Part shown: in pieces, positions 1-58,760 of the stretch
How the letters are laid out: every line of letters starts with the position of its first letter
Position numbering within the stretch: position 1 is the stretch's first letter
DNA from: Methanotrichaceae archaeon
GTDB taxonomy: Archaea; Halobacteriota; Methanosarcinia; Methanotrichales; Methanotrichaceae
Length of the DNA stretch: 64,000 nt
Assembly (NCBI GenBank): GCA_963748825.1
Contig: CAVVKN010000009.1
Location: 160,001-224,000 of the forward strand
Direction of reading: 5' to 3'
Program-made: the position numbers and the translations under genes
The notes under the pieces: model-generated
Told to the model about the DNA's origin: nothing
Databases searched by the model: none
What the model saw: only the letters and a program-made list of their open reading frames with translations

Positions 1-1590
1 GGCCCCTTCGTAGCCCTCAATGCATTTCATCCTCTTCAAATAAGAGACGACTTCTTGGTAGTGTTTCCTTCCCGTATCCTTATCGGCAAAGGGAATAATC
101 AACTCCCGGTAGACGTTGAAGTACTGCTCAGGGTAGCGGAAGGCCAGATCATTTTGATACAGTCTTAAGGTGGAGAGGCTTCTCTTGGCCAGTACCTCTG
201 TCAGCGCCTGATCGTACATCTTCTCTTTAAGATAGATATCAATTAGCTTGCTCCTGCCGGACCAGTCCGTAGATCTTTTCTCTGCAAAGTGTGCCAGTAT
301 CTTGGCCAGCCGCTCTTGCCACTCCTCTGCCTTAGAGGCCTTCTTTAGTGGCCCGTAATACTGCCAATCACCGCTCTGGAGAAATAGTGACTGTAGTGTA
401 TCCCGGTACTTTTTCGGATCAGAATCTTTGTAGATCCCGCTCAGGAAATCTCGTAACTCCTTTGTAAGATGATCTTCAAAGATGGCCACGCCCTCCTCCG
501 CCACCTCCAGAGCCTTCGCTTTCGCCCCATCGGCTAAAAGCTGCCGGGCGTACCTGAGACAAAGAGCATCACTGGTACGGTAATACCTCTCGATGAGCCC
601 ATAAAAATCATCCATCTCCCCGAGCTTGAGATGAAGGTCAAGCTTCATCGTGATCAGCTCTATCGCACCATGATGGTGCCACCAATCCTTATCACTGGGA
701 ACTTCGCCAGGCATATGCGGCTCCAGCAATTCATTCCAGTATCGCCGGTCCGACTCTTCGCGGCAGAGCTTATCTAGAGCTTCGCGGTAGTCGCTCTGGA
801 AATAGTCAGGATCCCCTCGCAGGTACTTGTCGAAGAGATACTTGATGTAAGGCCTCCTGCCATTTGCATCCAGTCCGGCCTTGAATATGCAGTCTGTGAA
901 TGCCTCCAGGCTATCGGTGAACTCTCCTCCATAGTTGCCGTCTGAGTCGTCCACCTCATCCATTTTCTCAGCTATGACCTCGGAAAGGGCCTGGTAGATC
1001 TTGGCCGCCTCCAGGAAATCGCCTTTCTGAATATAAAGCTCAGCCAGATCGCTTAGCGAAGAGAAGTCTATGTCCTCTCCGTAAGGAACATAACCGTGAT
1101 CCTCGACATCATCGTAGAGCGATTCCGCCTCAGCCTTATAATCATTCAGGCTTCTTCCCTCGCCTTTTTTGCCGAAGACGGCTTTAAACCGATTCCTGAG
1201 GTCTGCTCGCTGTTCCATCTCGGAGAGCAAGAAGCTTCGCAAAGCATCCGCATCGGCCCGCTTCAGGAGTTGCTCGGTATCCTCCAATTCACAGCTGCTT
1301 TTATTCATTAGAGGCTCGATCTCCACGTCATCGCGGATGACTGCCAGAAAGGTAGCAACTATGTGCTTGCATAGCCCATCCCAGTCGTAAGGACAGTCGC
1401 ATTCGCCGGAAAACTCCTCATCCAGCTCAATTTCCACCTGATAGTCATTTGTCCCGCTCACAACCGCCTTTACTCTGGTGGTCGTGGCCTCCTTGATGCG
1501 CACTCTTCCCTCCTCGAAATATCGCTCCCCCCGGTCGAAAGAGGACTCGGTGCACATTTGCCTGAGATCATCCTCATCCAAGTCAATCAT
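1..1590 (-). CDS. SWIM zinc-finger domain protein (3' end runs off the window)
   Basis: Absent from the ORF track. Manual translation from the ATG at 1590 gives MIDLDEDDLRQMCTESSFDRGERYFEEGRV...ECDCPYDWDGLCKHIVATFLAV, with the SWIM CxC...CxH motif. The start overlaps the upstream stop (ATGATTGA). Confidence 0.85.
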   Translation of the reverse strand, partial: MIDLDEDDLRQMCTESSFDRGERYFEEGRVRIKEATTTRVKAVVSGTNDYQVEIELDEEFSGECDCPYDWDGLCKHIVATFLAVIRDDVEIEPLMNKSSCELEDTEQLLKRADADALRSFLLSEMEQRADLRNRFKAVFGKKGEGRSLNDYKAEAESLYDDVEDHGYVPYGEDIDFSSLSDLAELYIQKGDFLEAAKIYQALSEVIAEKMDEVDDSDGNYGGEFTDSLEAFTDCIFKAGLDANGRRPYIKYLFDKYLRGDPDYFQSDYREALDKLCREESDRRYWNELLEPHMPGEVPSDKDWWHHHGAIELITMKLDLHLKLGEMDDFYGLIERYYRTSDALCLRYARQLLADGAKAKALEVAEEGVAIFEDHLTKELRDFLSGIYKDSDPKKYRDTLQSLFLQSGDWQYYGPLKKASKAEEWQERLAKILAHFAEKRSTDWSGRSKLIDIYLKEKMYDQALTEVLAKRSLSTLRLYQNDLAFRYPEQYFNVYRELIIPFADKDTGRKHYQEVVSYLKRMKCIEGYEGA

Positions 1591-2318
1591 TAGAGTTCCC
1601 TTCTGATGATGCGCTATTAGTCGTCTTCGTGCACAGATAGAGAGCGAAGAATCCCTGGCTATGCGTCGCTTTTTCTATCTTAAAGCCCGCTCTTTCGATC
1701 ATGCCCCGCATAATCCAATCCATAGTCGAATATTCATTTCGCACGTGCTCACAGATGCTGCGGGCAAACTGTGGGCCTGCTCTCTCTGTTGCCTTCGAGA
1801 TAAATTCATCCAGGAATTTCCCGTGGTTCACAGGATCAAAGGAGTATACCACATCCCGCAGGCAAAGCTTGCCACCCTCGGCCAGCATCTCTGCCATGCG
1901 CAGCAAAGCGATCTGTTTCCAAAAGTCGGGCAGATGGTGCAAGAGCAATCTGGCTGACGATGCCGTCAAATGGCGCACCATTGTGCCGGTAGGTGAGAAA
2001 GCCGCCCGGCAAGAATTCAATGTTGGCAACGCCGCGCGCCTGGGCCTTCTTTTCTGCATAGCGCAGCATGCCTGCCGAGAGGTCCACAGCGTAGACTTTG
2101 CGGCAGCGGCGGGCAGCGGCCAGGGCGAACTCGCCCGTGCCCGTCCCTATCTCCAGGATGCACTGATCGGGACGAAGGACGAGGAAGTCCAGGATCTCAA
2201 TGATTTCGCCGTGGACATCTCGAAACTTTTGCATATTACGATCATAGATCTCGGCCAGGGCGTCGAAGTCGGCGCCTGGGTGGTCGGGCTCGTGGTACTG
2301 CCAGACGGGGGCGGACAT
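1583..2318 (-). CDS. Class I SAM-dependent methyltransferase, frameshifted near 1941
   Basis: ORF 1836..2318 has ILEIGTGTG and VDLS. ORF 1583..2059 continues LHHLPDFWKQIAL...GGKLCLRD. Removing one base (CTTG to CTG) restores SQIALHHLPD. Confidence 0.85.
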
Positions 2319-2477
2319 TTTTCTACATCTCCATTGCCTTTTTTGCCAGGACTTTTGCGGATGGCATCAGGTCAATCAATTCTAGAGTTTCCGCACTCCA
2401 CTAATTTAAATCATATTGGACAATCAGGAATGTTTCAGCTTGTTGCTCATGCCCTTAGATTTAGCTCCTGAGCCAAT

Positions 2478-3047
2478 TCACCCCTCGATCATCGCTCTTA
2501 TCCACTCAACAGTTTCCATCACCCTGGCAAAGCGCATCGCCTGCGTCACCATCACCGCTCGGTGCAGATCCTGGGCCGAGATGGCTCCTGCGCTGTTGTG
2601 CACAGCCAGAGTTCCTATCGCATCGGAGAGAAAGTCCACCTGAAATCCCAAATGAAAAGCCTGGCGCGCCGTCGTGTCGCAGCACATCTGCGCCATGTAG
2701 CCGCAGATGGCAACGCGTCCCACGCCCGCCTCCCTCAGCCACTTCTCCAGCCCGGTTCCCGTGAAGCTGCCGGGCAGGCTCTTTTCTATCAGAATATCGC
2801 GTTTCCTAAGCTCAATTTCCGGGTGCAGTTTCCATTCCTCGCTGCCTTTCCGAAAGGTCGGCGAGTCCTTCGCGGCTGCGCTATGCTGGATGACGGCCAC
2901 TGGCACGCCCGCGCTGGCGGCATAGTCCATCGCCCTCAAAATATTGTTCAGGCTGTCTTCCGGAAAGGTCACGGGCAGACGGCCTGTGAAATATTCGTTC
3001 TGCACATCGATGACCAGCAATGCCGCATCAACCTTAGTCGTTTTCAT
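2478..3047 (-). CDS. Isochorismatase-family cysteine hydrolase
   Basis: [19 protein letters not shown] and [15 protein letters not shown] motifs. Confidence 0.9.
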
Positions 3048-51529: not shown

Positions 51530-52982
51530 TCACTTATTAAATAGCAGCTTTCTGACAAACCCGATCTCCTCAATTGTAAATCCTTTTAATACCAATAAAA
51601 CGATAAAGTAGATCAGAGCACCGATCGCTACGGACAGAGCTAATCCTGCGACACCTTCCGGCCTTAGTATGAGTAGTAGAAAAGACATGACCATCGAAGC
51701 TACTAAGCTTTTAGCAACAAAATTCAAGCGGAAAGAGATTTTTATTGATTTTTTGGCATAATAACTTGTAATAATAAACACAAAGGCGAATGATATCAAT
51801 GTAGCAATAGCGCCACCGATTATTCCCATATAGGGTATTAATAGAAAGCTTAAGACCAAGATTCAGAATAGCGGCGATAATCCAGATTTTACCGGTGAGT
51901 GCAGTATTTTTTTCCAGGACCAATATCTGCGCAACTATGGCATAAGCTCCCAGAAACAGAGCACCTAATGCCATAAATGGCGTTACTATATAACCCTGAG
52001 CCGCGATCTCCGGTGTGGACAAGCACATTCAATATGGGCCGGGATAAGAGAGATAGTCCGAAGGCAGCAGGAATGCCCAGGGCCAGGAAAAATTTCAGTG
52101 AGAATCCTAAGATAGCTCTCACCTCTTCCGTCTCATTCTCATCATAGTGCTTGGAAAGCGCGGCAGGCAATATGAATGATAGTGGAGCTATAAACAAGTT
52201 GATCATATTGCCCAATGTATATCCCGGAGAAAAATAACCCACGAAGGTTGTCCCCATCAATAGCCCAATTACATAGCGATTGCTCGAGTTTACAATCCAG
52301 CTTGATAGATTGCCAGGGATGGTGGGCATGCCGAAGGCCAGGTACTCTCTGATGTTCTTGAATTTAGGAAATGATGCTCCCACATCCGAGACTACAAACG
52401 AAACCATCGCCACGAATATCAGAATATCTGCGAATATCAGCCCGATCACGGCTCCTAAAATTCCCTTTCCGGAGAGCACGAAGTAAATTACCAGGAGCAG
52501 GCTGAAGAAATGCCTTCCCAAAAATAAATGCTGAGTATTTTTTAATCTGCTGAACGCTCCGGAAATAAGCAAACGGAATGCTGATCAAGCACTCTATAAA
52601 GACCAATAGCGAAAGAGCTTGGACAATATTCTGGCGGCCATCAAAAAGAGCTGATGCAATCGGCTCTGACAGAAGATAAATACCGGTTGCTGCCGCCAGT
52701 CCGACAAGAGCGATTATCGCATGCCATCGAATAAAATATTTCCTGAATATTTTCTCTCCCTTTCGCAGAGGGCAGAAACCTCACCATGGAGTAAGGTAGT
52801 CCAAGAAGGGCCACAGCGGGAACAAGGCCGATTGTCACTGAGATCTGAACCCATACGCCATACTCGGATATTGGCAGGTTCTTGGTGAGAAGGGGGAGCA
52901 TAATGAGTGAGTTGAGCTCCACGAGCAGGTTGGTTAAGGCCACCAGACCAATTCGTTTCGCCAGAAGCTGCCGCTGGCTCAT
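51530..52982 (-). CDS. Wzx/MOP-family oligosaccharide flippase, broken by four frameshifts
   Basis: LPLLTKNL..EYG, RYVIG..VGYFS and LIPYMGIIGGAIATL motifs. Single extra bases near 52722, 52509, 52021 and 51851 explain the fragments. Confidence 0.82.
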
Positions 52983-53104: not shown

Positions 53105-54289
53105 TTACGGCCCCGGATAAATAACCTCGATATTCTCCATGTTCAATATCAACTTGCGCAGCTCCTCGCAGTTTATGGGATGCTTGAACTCGCTGCACAT
53201 CTTCACCCGTTCCGAGAGGTCCCCAAGCTCCTTGTCTTTTAAGTAGTAGCCCATTCTCTGGGTGATGTATTTGAGCGCCTTGGCTCCGGTGTGCTTGCCG
53301 ATGATGATGTGCCGGGCTGCGCCCACCATTTCCGGAGAGTAGAGCTCATAGGTTCTGGGCTCTTCCAGCACGGCCGCCACATGAATTCCCGACTCATGGG
53401 CAAAGGCATTCGTGCCCACTACGGCCTTATTCCTGGCCACGGGAACTCCCGAGTAGGTCTCTACCAGCTTGGAGAGGTCCTTTATTTTGGTGAGATCGTA
53501 ACTCCCCAGGTCGTAATGCAGCCGCAGAGTTACCAGCAGCTCTTCTAAAGACGTGTTGCCGCTCCTCTCACCAATGCCGTTTACCGTAGTGTGCAACTGC
53601 TTTGCCCCAGCTTCCGCTCCGGCCAGAGTATTGGCCAGGGCCATTCCCAGATCGTCGTGGCAGTGCATGCAGATAGGGATCTTGACAACCTTTTTCAGCT
53701 CGCTTATCATGTAATACGTCGTGCGCGGATTCATGATCCCCACTGTATCGGCAACGCTGATGTAGTCGGCATGGTACTCCTCTGCCTTCTTGTACAGCTT
53801 CTTTAAAATCTCAAAATCGGTGCGCGTGGCATCCTCCGCAGAGAAGCGTACAATCAGGCCATGATCCTTGGCGTACTCCACTGTCTGCAGTGCGCATGAA
53901 ATCGCTTCGGGACAGCTCATGTGCAGTTTGTACTTGAGATGAAGATCAGAGGTAGCGATGAAGACGCTGACCATGTCGGCGCCGCATTCAATGGCCGCGT
54001 CGACATCTTTTTTGACGGACCGGCAGAGTGCTGAGATCTTGGCATCAAGTCCCAGGTTGCAGACCTCTTTTACGGCATTCATCTCTGCCGCGGATACGAC
54101 GGGAAAACCAGCTTCTATAACCTCGACGCCGATCTCATCCAGCCGCAGAGCGATATCAAGTTTTTCATCGGCGCGAAAGACGACTCCCGGCATCTGCTCA
54201 CCATCGCGAAGGGTTACATCGCAGATCTCGATGTCCAGGGGTGGTGTCTTGGCCAGGGCCAAGAACTGATTGAGGGAGTAGTCTTGCAT
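53105..54289 (-). CDS. aksA: Homocitrate synthase family protein (AksA-like, no regulatory domain)
   Basis: DVTLRDGEQ, HCHDDLGMA, GIGERSGN and AHESGIH; 394 aa. Specificity within the family is inferred from length. Confidence 0.8.
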   Translation of the reverse strand: MQDYSLNQFLALAKTPPLDIEICDVTLRDGEQMPGVVFRADEKLDIALRLDEIGVEVIEAGFPVVSAAEMNAVKEVCNLGLDAKISALCRSVKKDVDAAIECGADMVSVFIATSDLHLKYKLHMSCPEAISCALQTVEYAKDHGLIVRFSAEDATRTDFEILKKLYKKAEEYHADYISVADTVGIMNPRTTYYMISELKKVVKIPICMHCHDDLGMALANTLAGAEAGAKQLHTTVNGIGERSGNTSLEELLVTLRLHYDLGSYDLTKIKDLSKLVETYSGVPVARNKAVVGTNAFAHESGIHVAAVLEEPRTYELYSPEMVGAARHIIIGKHTGAKALKYITQRMGYYLKDKELGDLSERVKMCSEFKHPINCEELRKLILNMENIEVIYPGP

Positions 54290-54353
54290 AGCGTGCTAAT
54301 AGTGATGATTCATTACATAAATCGGTTTCGAAGGAAAGGGGTTTCCGGCAATT

Positions 54354-55670
54354 CTAAAGATTGGCAAAACGCTCCAATATCCATTGGTTTCGCACTTCAG
54401 GATGGAATATAATGCCGTAGGTGGGGTGGGAGTGGTGCTGGAAAGCCTCGAAGGCATCCGTTTTTCCCGCGAGGAGCATGAATCCCTTCGGCAATGTCAC
54501 TGCATAGTTATGAAGGTGATAGCCTTCTATCTGCCGCGGCTCGCCCAGCAGCGGTGACGCCCGGACGATCTCTATCTCTTCCAGGCCTATAGCCTGATGA
54601 GGTACTATCGATCCTCCATAGACGGCACCAATAATCTGCATGCCGGCGCAGATGCCCAAAATGGGCTTTTTCAAATCCTTTATCCAGGAGAAGAGCTGCA
54701 AATGATCGGCATAAACATTGTCCTCCAGGGCTGTTCCGCAGAGGATGATTTTATCATGGTCGGCAAGAGCCTGCGACTTGACCTCGGTATAATGCAAAAT
54801 GTTGCAGAGAAAGTCCGCTTTTTGCAGCGTATCTCTAATGGGATGGACAAATTCATACTGGGATAAGGAATCTTTTTCGAAGCACAGGTCAACCAGGAGG
54901 ATGCGGCCTTTCCTCTGCATCATTTCCTTGGAAATTTGTCCTTCGTTATCCGGAATTTTCGCTTCCATTTCCGGACTCATTCCCTTCACAGGTTTTTCCA
55001 TCAGTTGCATATCTTCTATGACAAACTGCCCCCGATAGTTGGCATAGCTCTGGGATGCCTTCATGATCTCGATTCTCTTCTGGAAGAATGGGCCATCCAG
55101 GACGAAGGTCTCCAGCTCCCCGCCTTCGCCGGAGGGATTTATCTTGTATTTTTTCTGGAGCCGCTCCAGCATTTGGATGCGCTCCTCCGTCAATCGCGCG
55201 CCCAGCCAGGAAGCATCGAAGGGATAAGCATAGACCCCGGATATGATGATCGAAAAGTCTTCCTTTAAAAGCCTCCGGAGGTAATCAATCTGATTTGTCT
55301 GCCAGAGGGGATTAAAGCACCAGAGATCCTGGTCGCGGCAGATCCTCTGTACTCGCGCCGCCTGGTAGATGGACTCGATGGCTCCGGTGACTATTCCCTG
55401 GACGGCGTATCTCTCCCGGGCGGCGGCTACTGCAGCCGACAGATCCTCCAGCTCCCCCTCTTTGACGCCCTCTGTGGGCCAGGTGAGCAAGGGAATGTCA
55501 AGCGCCTTGGCCTGCAAGCCTGTGCGGCGAATGTTGGGCGTGTGGAACATGTAGCTGTCAGGGTTCTCCGAGACCAGAGTTATCAAGCAGGCTACCTGGT
55601 TCTTTTCCATAGCCCGGCGGCAAGCAAAGACAGAGTCCTTGCCCCCGGAGAAGAGCACGCCCAGTTTCAT
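54354..55670 (-). CDS. dph6: Diphthine-ammonia ligase (Dph6) fused to a class I glutamine amidotransferase domain
   Basis: N-terminal SGGKDS, SYMFH and GEGGELET; C-terminal GICAGMQ and FHPE. Confidence 0.85.
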   Translation of the reverse strand: MKLGVLFSGGKDSVFACRRAMEKNQVACLITLVSENPDSYMFHTPNIRRTGLQAKALDIPLLTWPTEGVKEGELEDLSAAVAAARERYAVQGIVTGAIESIYQAARVQRICRDQDLWCFNPLWQTNQIDYLRRLLKEDFSIIISGVYAYPFDASWLGARLTEERIQMLERLQKKYKINPSGEGGELETFVLDGPFFQKRIEIMKASQSYANYRGQFVIEDMQLMEKPVKGMSPEMEAKIPDNEGQISKEMMQRKGRILLVDLCFEKDSLSQYEFVHPIRDTLQKADFLCNILHYTEVKSQALADHDKIILCGTALEDNVYADHLQLFSWIKDLKKPILGICAGMQIIGAVYGGSIVPHQAIGLEEIEIVRASPLLGEPRQIEGYHLHNYAVTLPKGFMLLAGKTDAFEAFQHHSHPTYGIIFHPEVRNQWILERFANL

Positions 55671-55743: not shown

Positions 55744-57228
55744 TTACGGCTTAGAGGGCAGATCCAGGTCAATCATCCGCCAGATCTTCTCCATATCTAA
55801 GTTTGACTCTACAGCCGCGGCCAGCTCAGCAAAGCCCTCTCCCTTAGCTGCCTTAGAGGGAACGCAGCTTAGCTCTATCGCGGGATTTTTGCGGCGGCGG
55901 AGGAAATCGAGAAAAGCATTGCAAAAGTTCTCATTCTCGAAGATGCCATGCAGGTAGGTGCCGATCACAATTCCGCTTTCGGATACCGCGCCGTCGTCTC
56001 CGAAGGCTGCCTGGCCGTTGGAGCTGGTCACACCCATGTGAATCTCGTAGCCTGTGACAATTTGGCCGCGGATCGGCTCCAGGATAGGCCCACCGCCCGT
56101 GACCTGCTTCTTCACCTGCATCGTCCTCTTCTCATAAAGGTCAAAGCGGGTTACAGTATCCAGCAGGCCCAGGCAGGGAACAGTTCCCACGGTGTCCTCA
56201 ACGCCGCAGTCGATGATCTCGCGTCCAAGCATCTGGTAGCCTCCGCAGATGCCCAGTACCGGAGTATCCGGCAGGGATTTTATCTGATCAGCCATGCCCT
56301 TTTCCTGCATCTCCCGCAGGTCGGAGACGGTGTTCTTGGTTCCGGGAATGATCACCGCATCCGGGCGGCCCAGATCATCCGAGAGGTTCACATACCTGAC
56401 ATGCGCCTGCCGCTCCAAGGGCTCGAAGTCGGTGAAGTTGCTGATGCGTGGCAGCCTTATCACCGCGATATCGACCTGCTCGCCCGCCGCCCGCCCGGCC
56501 TTCTTGTCTCCCAATGAGACGGAGTCCTCGGAGGGTATGTCCAGATCCAGATAGGGCATGACGCCCAAGATGGGCACGCCGGTGAGTTCTTCCAGCATCT
56601 TCAGGCCAGAGCCCAAAATGGCAGGATCGCCCCGGAATTTGTTGATCACCAGGCCCTTAACCAGTGGCCTGATGTCCTCGGGCAAAAGCTGCACCGTGCC
56701 GAAAAGGCTGGCGAAGACACCCCCTCTCTCGATATCCCCGACCAGGATTATGGGGGCATGCAGGTAGCGGGCCACGTAGATATTGGCGATATCCCTATCG
56801 AAGAGGTTGATCTCTGCCGCTCCGCCCGCGCCTTCTACTACGATGTAGTCGTAGTCCTTCTCCAGCTCTTGGATCGATCGGTCCACCACTTCCTTGAGCC
56901 CTTCGATCTCCCGGTAGTATTCCTCTGCCGATTTATCGGCCACGGGCCTGCCCAGGACGATGACCTGAGAGGTGCGGTCACCCTTGGGCTTGAGGAGGAT
57001 GGGATTCATGAACTCTGTCGGCTCCACACGGGCTGCCCAGGCCTGCACCGCCTGGGCTATGCCGATCTCCGAGCCGTTCTGGGTGACCCAGGAGTTGAGG
57101 CTCATGTTCTGAGACTTGAAGGGCGCGACCTTAAAGCCGCGATCGGAGAGGAGGCGGCAGAGGGCGGCGACAAGAGTGCTCTTGCCGGAATGGGAGGTGG
57201 TGCCGAGGACAACGAGAAAGCGGGACAT
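55744..57228 (-). CDS. cobQ: Cobyric acid synthase
   Basis: GTTSHSGKS, PFKSQNMSLNS, EGAG, ISNFTDF, GICGGYQMLG, GYEIH and GTYLHG motifs. Confidence 0.96.
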   Translation of the reverse strand: MSRFLVVLGTTSHSGKSTLVAALCRLLSDRGFKVAPFKSQNMSLNSWVTQNGSEIGIAQAVQAWAARVEPTEFMNPILLKPKGDRTSQVIVLGRPVADKSAEEYYREIEGLKEVVDRSIQELEKDYDYIVVEGAGGAAEINLFDRDIANIYVARYLHAPIILVGDIERGGVFASLFGTVQLLPEDIRPLVKGLVINKFRGDPAILGSGLKMLEELTGVPILGVMPYLDLDIPSEDSVSLGDKKAGRAAGEQVDIAVIRLPRISNFTDFEPLERQAHVRYVNLSDDLGRPDAVIIPGTKNTVSDLREMQEKGMADQIKSLPDTPVLGICGGYQMLGREIIDCGVEDTVGTVPCLGLLDTVTRFDLYEKRTMQVKKQVTGGGPILEPIRGQIVTGYEIHMGVTSSNGQAAFGDDGAVSESGIVIGTYLHGIFENENFCNAFLDFLRRRKNPAIELSCVPSKAAKGEGFAELAAAVESNLDMEKIWRMIDLDLPSKP

Positions 57229-57270
57229 GGGGAGGGCGAGGGCGTGCAAGTTTATTTGCCTTTTGGAAGG

Positions 57271-57932: not shown

Positions 57933-58760
57933 ATGAATCTGGCAGATAAGCTGAAAGACCTCAAAAAGAGGATTGCGGAGAAGGGAAAGCTTCTCGTGGC
58001 CTACTCAGGAGGCGTGGACAGCAGCCTTCTGGCAAGGTTGGCGCATGATGTTCTGGGCGACGAGGCCCTGGCCGTCATATTGGACAGCGAAACCATGCCA
58101 AGAAGCGAGCTATTGCAGGCTATTGCTCTCGCAAAATCTCTGGGGCTGAATTATCAGGTAGCAGAATTCTCCATCCTGATGGAAGAGCAGTTTATGCAAA
58201 ATCCAGTCACACGCTGCTACATCTGCAAGAAAAAGTCCGCGGCTGTTTTAAAAAGCATCGCGGAGAAGGAAGGCATAAGCTGTATCGCCGATGGGGTTAA
58301 CCTCTCTGATTACGGAGACTATCGGCCAGGAATTGCCGCTTGCGATGAAGAAGGAATCTGGCATCCTTTTGTCGAGGCACGCATAACTAAAGAGGATATT
58401 CGCGTCCTGGCAAAAAGTCTGGACCTGTCCGTCTGGAACAAGCCTTCCTCGGCCTGCCTGGCCACTCGAATTGCCTATGGTGAGCCGATCAAACAGGAGA
58501 CCCTTGCAATGGTGGAAGAGGCGGAGGAATACCTGAAAAGCCTGGGCTTTTTGCAGCTTCGGGTGCGGGTCCATGGCCGCATGGCCCGAATTGAGCTTTT
58601 AAAGCAGGATATGGCAAAGGCGACTGATGGCAGCGATGAGATAGCCAAGATGCTCAAAGCAATCGGATTTGACTATGTCGCTCTGGATCTGCAGGGCTTT
58701 CGCAGCGGAAGCATGAACGAGGGTTCCTTGAAAGAGGTCTTATGGACGTCCAGGAAATAA
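57933..58760 (+). CDS. larE: LarE-family ATP-dependent sulfur transferase
   Basis: PP-loop AYSGGVDS, RCYICK, DYRPG, KPSSACLATRI, LRVRVH and GFRSGSMN motifs. Confidence 0.92.
   Translation: MNLADKLKDLKKRIAEKGKLLVAYSGGVDSSLLARLAHDVLGDEALAVILDSETMPRSELLQAIALAKSLGLNYQVAEFSILMEEQFMQNPVTRCYICKKKSAAVLKSIAEKEGISCIADGVNLSDYGDYRPGIAACDEEGIWHPFVEARITKEDIRVLAKSLDLSVWNKPSSACLATRIAYGEPIKQETLAMVEEAEEYLKSLGFLQLRVRVHGRMARIELLKQDMAKATDGSDEIAKMLKAIGFDYVALDLQGFRSGSMNEGSLKEVLWTSRK

Follow-up and report, generated by a model that had tools for sequence, protein, structure and literature searches.

The stretch of DNA considered here (the window: 64,000 nucleotides, positions 160,001 to 224,000 of contig CAVVKN010000009.1 in the Methanotrichaceae archaeon assembly GCA_963748825.1) encodes, at 54354..55670 on the minus strand, a protein in which Dph6, the enzyme that performs the final step in making diphthamide, is joined to a class I glutamine amidotransferase (GATase). 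On the basis of its motifs and of structure models, this protein is probably a single-chain, glutamine-hydrolysing diphthine amidotransferase (diphthamide synthetase). The fusion is one lineage's covalent form of a conserved two-gene module, dph6 followed by a GATase gene, which occurs widely in Methanotrichaceae and Methanomicrobiales and in some DPANN archaea, and of which the fused state is the minority form.

Modular organization of the fused protein

The gene consists of a single open reading frame (ORF) of 438 amino acids, starting MKLGVLFSGGKDS, with its stop codon at 54354-54356 and no internal stops. An earlier sequence-only reading had described one 438-residue frame bearing a Dph6 and a GATase domain, together with the positions of their motifs, an intact Cys-His-Glu triad and a linker of about 30 residues, and all of these features were recovered as outlined below.

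The N-terminal domain (residues 1-226; 54993..55670) is a Dph6-type N-type ATP pyrophosphatase (diphthine-ammonia ligase). It was recognized by Pfam model PF01902 (Diphthami_syn_2; residues 1-221, E 6.3e-62) and by the NCBIfam equivalog TIGR03679 (Dph6_archaeal; 271.2 bits versus a cut-off of 197.3), as well as in Foldseek comparisons. The domain contains the ATP-binding PP-loop SGGKDS (residues 8-13; 55632..55649), the motif SYMFH (residues 39-43) and the motif GEGGELE (residues 181-187). The C-terminal domain (residues 256-438; 54357..54905), a class I GATase of a Dph6-associated family, matches PF00117 over residues 274-427 (E 7e-20; 71.9 bits versus a gathering cut-off of 22.8) and was likewise recovered by Foldseek. 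Its nucleophile elbow GICAG (residues 339-343; 54642..54656) carries the catalytic Cys341 and is followed by Met344-Gln345, while the motif FHPE (residues 422-425; 54396..54407) supplies His423 and Glu425 of the triad and lies within the signature FHPEVRNxW. Both GATase motifs were verified at the codon level against the DNA of the window. A further segment, DSLSQYE (Asp267 to Glu273; 54852..54872), is specific to this GATase family and is predicted to contact a loop of the Dph6 domain (residues 118-124).

The two domains are connected by a linker of 29 residues (227-255; 54906..54992), which is predicted to be disordered, and its length and composition were highly variable among the fused relatives in two alignments. 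An AlphaFold2 model of the whole fusion, computed from a 76-row alignment, had a mean pLDDT of 90.8 and a pTM of 0.88, with pLDDT values below 50 only at residues 230-252.

The dph6-GATase gene pair and its recurrent fusion

The sequence-only reading had proposed a search of other archaea for the same architecture or for adjacent gene pairs; both occur, the pairs being far more common than the fusions. In the Methanotrichaceae, the GATase was detected in 71 of 81 genomes (70 of these at E <= 1.1e-45, the copy in the remaining one being truncated where its contig ends). Among the 67 genomes of this family with a strong Dph6 match, the two domains were fused in 17, and in 47 others the GATase was encoded immediately downstream on the same strand; the remaining three comprised one pair with a spacing of 203 nucleotides, one genome without a GATase match and one with a partial copy elsewhere. 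The spacing in the split pairs is narrow, with the GATase match beginning -13 to +62 nucleotides after the Dph6 match in 47 of 50.

Across the phylum, the GATase family was present at E <= 1e-22 in 68 of 401 genomes (14/14, 15/28, 7/7, 3/6, 2/3 and 13/64 in the individual taxonomic families). At 61 of the 62 loci in the phylum sample, a dph6 gene of the EGGExE type either immediately precedes the GATase gene on its strand or is fused to it. In the sole exception (L059), an IS605-family TnpB/OrfB gene (Cas12f1-like TNB domain, OrfB_IS605) is inserted between dph6 and the GATase gene; the insertion (1666..2826, minus strand, in L176, G168:C46:1-3400) marks the only interrupted pair among these 62 loci.

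The picture is similar among 80 named loci, of which 15 were fused, 62 were split on the same strand and three lacked a Dph6 (two of them cut by a contig end). Named records with the pair belong to Methanothrix, Methanocrinis, Methanoregulaceae, Methanolinea, Methanofollis, Methanoculleus, Methanomicrobiaceae, Undinarchaeales and Aenigmatarchaeota. Within the phylum to which the Aenigmatarchaeota record (L144) belongs, the family was found at E <= 1e-30 in 14 of 151 genomes, and 12 loci from that phylum included one fusion, ten split pairs on the same strand and one GATase without Dph6. Distant fused proteins include P0081 (Aenigmarchaeota) and P0085 (Micrarchaeota), and both domains were present on 95 of the best 120 database proteins listed. 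Additional open frames of 446-482 residues near GATase matches were considered as possible fusions and rejected, being stop-to-stop frames that overlap a separate dph6 gene.

In a FastTree phylogeny of 152 concatenated Dph6 and GATase rows, a quick method whose unrooted result contains flagged long branches, the window's form fell within a single clade (support 90), which comprises 17 fused rows and lies nested among split pairs. Seven changes between the fused and split states were needed, at least five of them forced by well-supported branches; one of the seven separates nearly identical rows and may represent a difference in assembly. That these two genes have become fused more than once strongly supports a joint function of their products. 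In one lineage, a fused protein of 461 residues from the protein collection (P0073) is nearly identical to a pair encoded in two overlapping frames in two genome records (L015/L121), where 203 nucleotides separate the matched parts; whether its linker reads as fused or as frameshifted may depend on the assembly.

Integrity of the fused reading frame

The sequence-only reading had also advised verification of the region around the linker (54900-55020), in view of possible indel errors in the assembly. Logan contigs of three different studies cross the linker without gaps: record 5 of X1 (54646-55065, with 0 differences), record 9 of X2 (54307-55103) and record 19 of X3 (54505-55130). In one further run (X5), the ends of two contigs meet at 54977/54984, within the linker, and no conclusion is drawn from this. 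No insertions or deletions were present in any of the four Logan runs compared; this evidence consists of contigs rather than raw reads, and no single listed contig covers the whole stretch of 1421 bases. Furthermore, of 151 genomes from the class, the window's genome and 16 others of its genus carry residues 1-437/438 in one stop-free frame, and the same fused frame occurs in 15 of the 80 named records, all of the Methanothrix/Methanotrichaceae type. The fusion is thus confirmed not to be an artefact of assembly.

Identity of the Dph6 domain

The DUF71 family includes genuine Dph6 proteins, described as carrying an EGGE/DxE motif, and a subgroup tied to vitamin B12 salvage (DUF71-B12), described as carrying ENGEF/YH (PMC3541065). 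The window protein displays EGGELE at residues 182-187 (55110..55127), the motif by which Dph6 is told apart from the DUF71-B12 subgroup, and lacks ENGEF/YH at this position. Its catalytic positions are strictly conserved: Ser8, Lys11 and Asp12 were present in all 142 distinct relatives having a residue there, and Glu182, Glu185 and Glu187 in 144 of 144. In Foldseek comparisons, the domain superimposed on the stand-alone Dph6 proteins PH1257 (2d13) and PF0828 (3rk1) with TMt values of 0.94-0.95 and an rmsd of 1.3 over 226-229 columns; these proteins share its fold and catalytic motifs (E 6e-50) and, unlike the fusion, have no glutaminase partner.

Only two PF01902 matches were found in the genome. 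The second (L002) carries ENGEFH, so that the fused gene is the only one of the Dph6 type. Dph2 (289.5 bits) and Dph5 (312.2 bits) are also encoded in the genome. Given the EGGELE motif, the single Dph6-type copy and the presence of Dph2 and Dph5, the fused gene is, as judged from sequence, the organism's candidate for diphthamide synthetase. The B12-type copy L002 (G000:C21:91529-95011) is itself split into two ORFs (1874..2158 and 1480..1833, both on the minus strand), with an N-terminal PP-loop piece (VVSWTGGKDG) and a change of frame before the C-terminal piece, and is either a pseudogene or the product of an assembly indel.

Identity of the GATase domain

The closest named relatives of the GATase domain are the GATase subunits of archaeal GMP synthase (GuaAA). 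Foldseek matched the domain to GMP synthase subunit A structures with TMt values of 0.75-0.80, and in the nearest relative (1wl8, GuaAA; E 1.4e-12) the triad motifs align with Cys341, His423 and Glu425. The domain nevertheless scored far below the GuaAA equivalog cut-offs (NF001975, 68.6 bits versus 198; TIGR00888, 67.8 versus 172.15), and a genuine guaAA gene is located elsewhere in the genome (G000:C12:88763-89305; 255.2 bits versus 198, compared with 70.8 for the GATase of the fusion in the same search). Identity as GMP synthase subunit A was rejected on both counts, which indicate at the sequence level that the GATase is a distinct family. The family bears its own signature, DSLSxYEFVxPI followed by FHPEVRNxW, and is encoded directly after, or fused to, a dph6 gene of the EGGExE type; the window protein shows both features. 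The pattern F[HN]PEVRN[ERQ]W was sufficiently specific that, of 165 stretches containing it in species-representative genomes, 163 encode relatives.

Annotation of the family is inconsistent, and relatives appear in databases under the names "diphthine--ammonia ligase", "GMP synthase (glutamine-hydrolysing)", "gamma-glutamyl-gamma-aminobutyrate hydrolase family" and "ABC transporter with metal-binding/Fe-S-binding domain". The model PF28410 is precomputed on every one of the 120 database hits listed, among them fragments with Dph6 alone and fragments that contain the GATase.

Predicted interface between the two domains

The Dph6 part (residues 1-228) and the GATase part (residues 252-438) were docked as separate chains. 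An ipSAE of 0.92, which is the model's own confidence and was obtained with an alignment built for this analysis, resulted in each of three runs, while the best of three controls reached 0.00. The mark used for docking was attained by 116 of 157 solved complexes and by 2 of 215 mismatched pairs, counts that are rough in view of this custom alignment. The three runs agreed in at least 96% of contacts, and the pLDDT of the partners was at least 93. The Foldseek searches retrieved no solved chain covering both domains (TMq <= 0.49), so that the docking result is not the recall of a known complex. The docking supports binding between Dph6 and the GATase rather than showing it.

The predicted interface comprises residues 1, 19-24, 94, 101-112 and 115-126 on the Dph6 side and residues 267-280, 314-317, 359-363, 384-388 and 425-427 on the GATase side, with the lowest-error contacts between residues 119-123 and 272-273. 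Residues 314-317 adjoin the conserved Gly312 (oxyanion) and residues 425-427 include the triad glutamate, which would orient the catalytic face of the glutaminase toward Dph6. In the model, this face points at the Dph6 helix bearing Tyr102 and Gln103. The equivalent residues (there Tyr103 and Gln104) were placed at a modelled interface with elongation factor 2 (EF-2), beside the predicted diphthine site, in PMC3541065. By analogy with GMP synthase and from the docked model, we infer a path for ammonia between the two sites.

Conservation of the Dph6 surface is in keeping with this arrangement. Among the 144 distinct pairs, Ala20 is conserved in 99%, Gln108 in 100%, Trp117 in 90%, Cys118 in 95% and Asn120 in 99%, and these residues are replaced in Dph6 proteins that have no associated GATase, i.e., those of the Methanosarcinaceae and of two Methanotrichaceae genera. 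The consensus of 20 partnerless Methanosarcinaceae Dph6 proteins differs at 8 of 15 conserved interface positions versus 15 of 82 positions elsewhere (Fisher p 0.007), a comparison among related genomes that do not constitute independent sampling and that provides a hint only. The two genera of the window's own family (five genomes; L177-L181 in G054, G066, G094, G022 and G012) lack the GATase, encode a stand-alone Dph6 above the cut-off together with Dph2, and show replacements at the same interface positions. The Dph6 proteins of L177-L181 are much more divergent (about 1e-31 to the window protein), possibly as a result of gene replacement.

Proposed reaction and relation to known systems

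In the proposed reaction, the Dph6 domain, as expected from its family membership, would bind ATP at the PP-loop and adenylate the diphthine carboxylate on EF-2. The class I GATase, with its motifs intact, would hydrolyse glutamine via a thioester on Cys341, with the participation of His423 and Glu425. The released ammonia would then cross the interface and attack diphthine-AMP to yield diphthamide, as suggested by the docked model and by the precedent of GMP synthase. Beyond the domain identities, intact motifs, genomic linkage, recurrent fusion and specific predicted interface described above, we infer glutaminase activity, ammonia channelling and the use of glutamine in the cell.

GMP synthase (GuaAA with GuaAB, or the fused bacterial GuaA) is the nearest counterpart, since it likewise combines a class I GATase with an adenylating N-type PP-loop ATP pyrophosphatase, and GuaAA is the closest relative of the GATase domain in both sequence and fold. 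Unlike GMP synthase, the synthase of the fusion is Dph6, the substrate of which is a modified histidine on EF-2 rather than a nucleotide. The domains stand in the opposite order to those of bacterial GuaA, the GATase being C-terminal, and, in contrast to GuaAA, the GATase of the fusion carries the signature described above and fails the GuaAA equivalog cut-off.

The concept of a Dph6 fed by a glutaminase is already in print, for another fusion. De Crecy-Lagard et al. (2012) proposed that the ammonia source of Dph6 varies and that an N-terminal AsnB module (GAT-II plus Asn_synthase), fused to DUF71 in Methanohalophilus, Methanosalsum and "Ca. Nanosalinarum", may supply it (PMC3541065). Those proteins resemble the present one in having a glutaminase module fused to Dph6 as a possible supply of ammonia; they differ in that the module is N-terminal, of class II (Ntn), and accompanied by a second PP-loop domain. 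The window protein has no PF00733 match, begins with Dph6 at residue 1 and carries a C-terminal GATase of class I, and is consequently distinct from the AsnB-DUF71 type. An Asn_synthase-Dph6 fusion of 710 residues was confirmed in a Methanosarcinaceae genome (L174), so that, with the class I GATase fusion, two glutaminase-type modules have been recruited within one class. The eukaryotic Dph6 (yeast YLR143W) also consists of a Dph6 core with a C-terminal extension proposed to make ammonia, namely two YjgF/RidA-like domains (PMC3541065; PMC3585130), which are essential in yeast (PMC3585130). That extension resembles imine/enamine deaminases and is not a glutamine amidotransferase.

The terms "GATase" and "Methanosaeta" are absent from the text of PMC3541065, although a fusion with a class I GATase could still be shown in its supplementary figure 2C or table S1. 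Full-text literature searches, the coverage of which excludes subscription journals and supplements, yielded no paper in which Dph6 has a partner of this GATase class, and within the same coverage the remark of the sequence-only reading that no characterized example was known to it still stands. Similarly, no assay of an archaeal Dph6 was found described in the literature examined. The class I GATase-Dph6 module is thus widespread and apparently undescribed in print.

Variation of the catalytic triad

The 144 distinct pairs include 117 with a Cys-His-Glu triad, 15 with Ser-His-Glu, four with Gly-His-Glu and eight with other losses of Cys or His; the equivalent of Cys341 is present in 121. Cys-His-Glu and Gln345 are retained together in the window protein, as in each of the 17 rows that make up its fused clade. 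Most of the Ser-His-Glu rows cluster with the named Methanoculleus record. The partners of that lineage (L022, L024, L025, L027, L032, L033, L035, L036, L039, L041-L043, L052, L146, L148 and L150) have GISSGM(R/L) instead of GICAGMQ, with Ser replacing Cys and the subsequent Gln missing, and mostly keep the His-Pro-Glu motif. By their sequences, these partners may be either degenerate glutaminases or enzymes of altered chemistry. The aspartyl dipeptidase PepE, of related fold, has a Ser-His-Glu triad, and the serine forms might thus keep some hydrolytic activity. The Gly-His-Glu rows form one fused clade, with P0104, P0106 and P0109 among its members. Three partners of the Methanotrichaceae type (L019/L136 and L153) lack both Cys and His (GISTG or GIATG, and FNPE) and are still encoded directly after dph6.

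Other positions of the GATase are conserved more strictly. Glu273, Gly312 and Asp317 are invariant in the 144 relatives, and Pro277, just past the 54852..54872 segment, is kept in 143 of them; of these positions, Glu273, Pro277 and Asp317 all lie in the predicted interface.

Alternative interpretations

Four alternatives were weighed against the proposed reading. The single frame could be the result of an assembly or indel error merging two genes, an idea that draws some force from other genes of this assembly that appear frameshifted (the DUF71-B12 copy L002 and flippase-like fragments at 51711-52982) and from the fact that most relatives carry two separate genes. Its probability is negligible, and it was rejected, since gap-free contigs from three independent studies span the linker and the same frame recurs in 16 other genomes of the genus and in 15 named records; the fused forms also constitute one 17-row clade in the tree. 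The protein might instead act in cobamide (B12) metabolism, like the DUF71-B12 subgroup: the gene directly upstream on the same strand (55744-57249) encodes the cobyric acid synthase CbiP/CobQ (600.9 bits versus a cut-off of 273), and part of the DUF71 family is tied to B12 salvage in PMC3541065. This role is extremely improbable and was rejected on the basis of the EGGELE motif in place of ENGEF/YH, a Dph6 equivalog score that exceeds the cut-off and the limited distribution of the cbiP neighbor, and the genome carries its B12-type copy at a separate locus. Indeed, cbiP adjoins the pair at only 28 of 142 loci, all of the Methanotrichaceae type, while the link to the GATase holds across orders; its adjacency is therefore treated as local synteny. 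It is also very unlikely that the joining is due to chance or co-regulation, with a GATase that feeds another amidotransferase (e.g., GuaAB) or that is a gamma-glutamyl hydrolase of the Peptidase C26 type. Among named entries, the domain indeed matches models and structures of GMP synthase subunit A best, a weak match to Peptidase_C26 was obtained (E 3e-6), and some databases name relatives after GMP synthase or the gamma-glutamyl-GABA hydrolase family. Against this stand the missed GuaAA cut-off and the genuine guaAA elsewhere, the occurrence of the family almost only beside or fused to dph6 in all lineages sampled, with repeated fusion, and the specificity of the docking to Dph6 relative to the controls.

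A fourth alternative holds that Dph6 uses free ammonia and that any glutaminase activity is dispensable, the GATase-like domain acting chiefly in structure, regulation or substrate recognition, for example by completing the active site or by assisting in the docking of EF-2. This alternative is unlikely; the observations that weigh against a glutamine-hydrolysing amidotransferase are given here together with those in its favor. The canonical triad has been lost in 27 of the 144 distinct relatives, with the gene still beside or fused to dph6, and the variants without Cys also lack Gln345 of GICAGMQ. The conservation of Glu273, Asp317 and Pro277 exceeds that of Cys341, and the acidic invariants Glu273 and Asp317 are in predicted contact with Dph6 loop 118-124. 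The GATase partner was found in none of the 52 Methanosarcinaceae genomes sampled, and ammonia is the reported substrate of the yeast Dph6 (PMC3585130); together with the partnerless Dph6 of many archaea, this means that a glutaminase is not required for the chemistry. The docking score and the covariation of the interface carry the restrictions given with them above. On the other side, Cys-His-Glu together with Gln345 persists in 117 of the 144 pairs, across Methanotrichaceae, Methanomicrobiales and DPANN archaea, and conservation of a triad over such distant lineages argues for selection for catalysis, without which it would not persist.

The catalytic and non-catalytic interpretations are not mutually exclusive. 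Retention of the partner despite loss of Cys or His implies that glutamine hydrolysis is not its sole selected role, and the sequences suggest that it probably has a non-catalytic role as well. A combined interpretation, which can be put forward only tentatively, would have the partner as an obligate second subunit, serving as a glutaminase in most lineages, including this one, and contributing Glu273 and Asp317 to the Dph6 active site or to the recognition of EF-2 and diphthine. In those lineages the enzyme would be, to our knowledge, the first among class I glutamine amidotransferases to act on a carboxylate of a folded protein (EF-2). Such a second role would explain the survival of pseudo-glutaminases in the Methanoculleus-type lineages, in some Methanotrichaceae and in the fused clade of P0099, P0104, P0106 and P0109, which is represented solely in the protein collection.

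Neighboring genes

A neighboring gene at 53105-54289 (minus strand) encodes a LeuA/AksA-family synthase that scored just under the thresholds of its subfamilies, and another at 57933-58760 (plus strand) encodes a PP-loop sulfur transferase of the LarE type (319.4 bits). No functional link to the fusion was apparent for these two neighbors or for CbiP/CobQ. Three consecutive ORF fragments at 51711-52982 (minus strand) seem to derive from one membrane protein and reflect either a broken gene or an indel error; the middle fragment (51889-52572) gave weak matches to polysaccharide flippases of the HfsF/MurJ type.

Implications for diphthamide synthesis

Diphthamide is present on EF-2 throughout the archaea and eukaryotes, and the findings bear on the nitrogen donor of its last synthetic step in cells. 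The maintenance of the partner beside dph6 over several methanogen orders and DPANN archaea, together with its repeated fusion, leads to the testable claim that glutamine is used, and the natural occurrence of active and degenerate versions of the partner offers material for comparison. If the claim is true, a protein-modifying member would be added to the PP-loop/GATase amidotransferases. The linkage between dph6 and the GATase suggests that, in many archaea, the final nitrogen of diphthamide may be derived from glutamine rather than from free ammonia.

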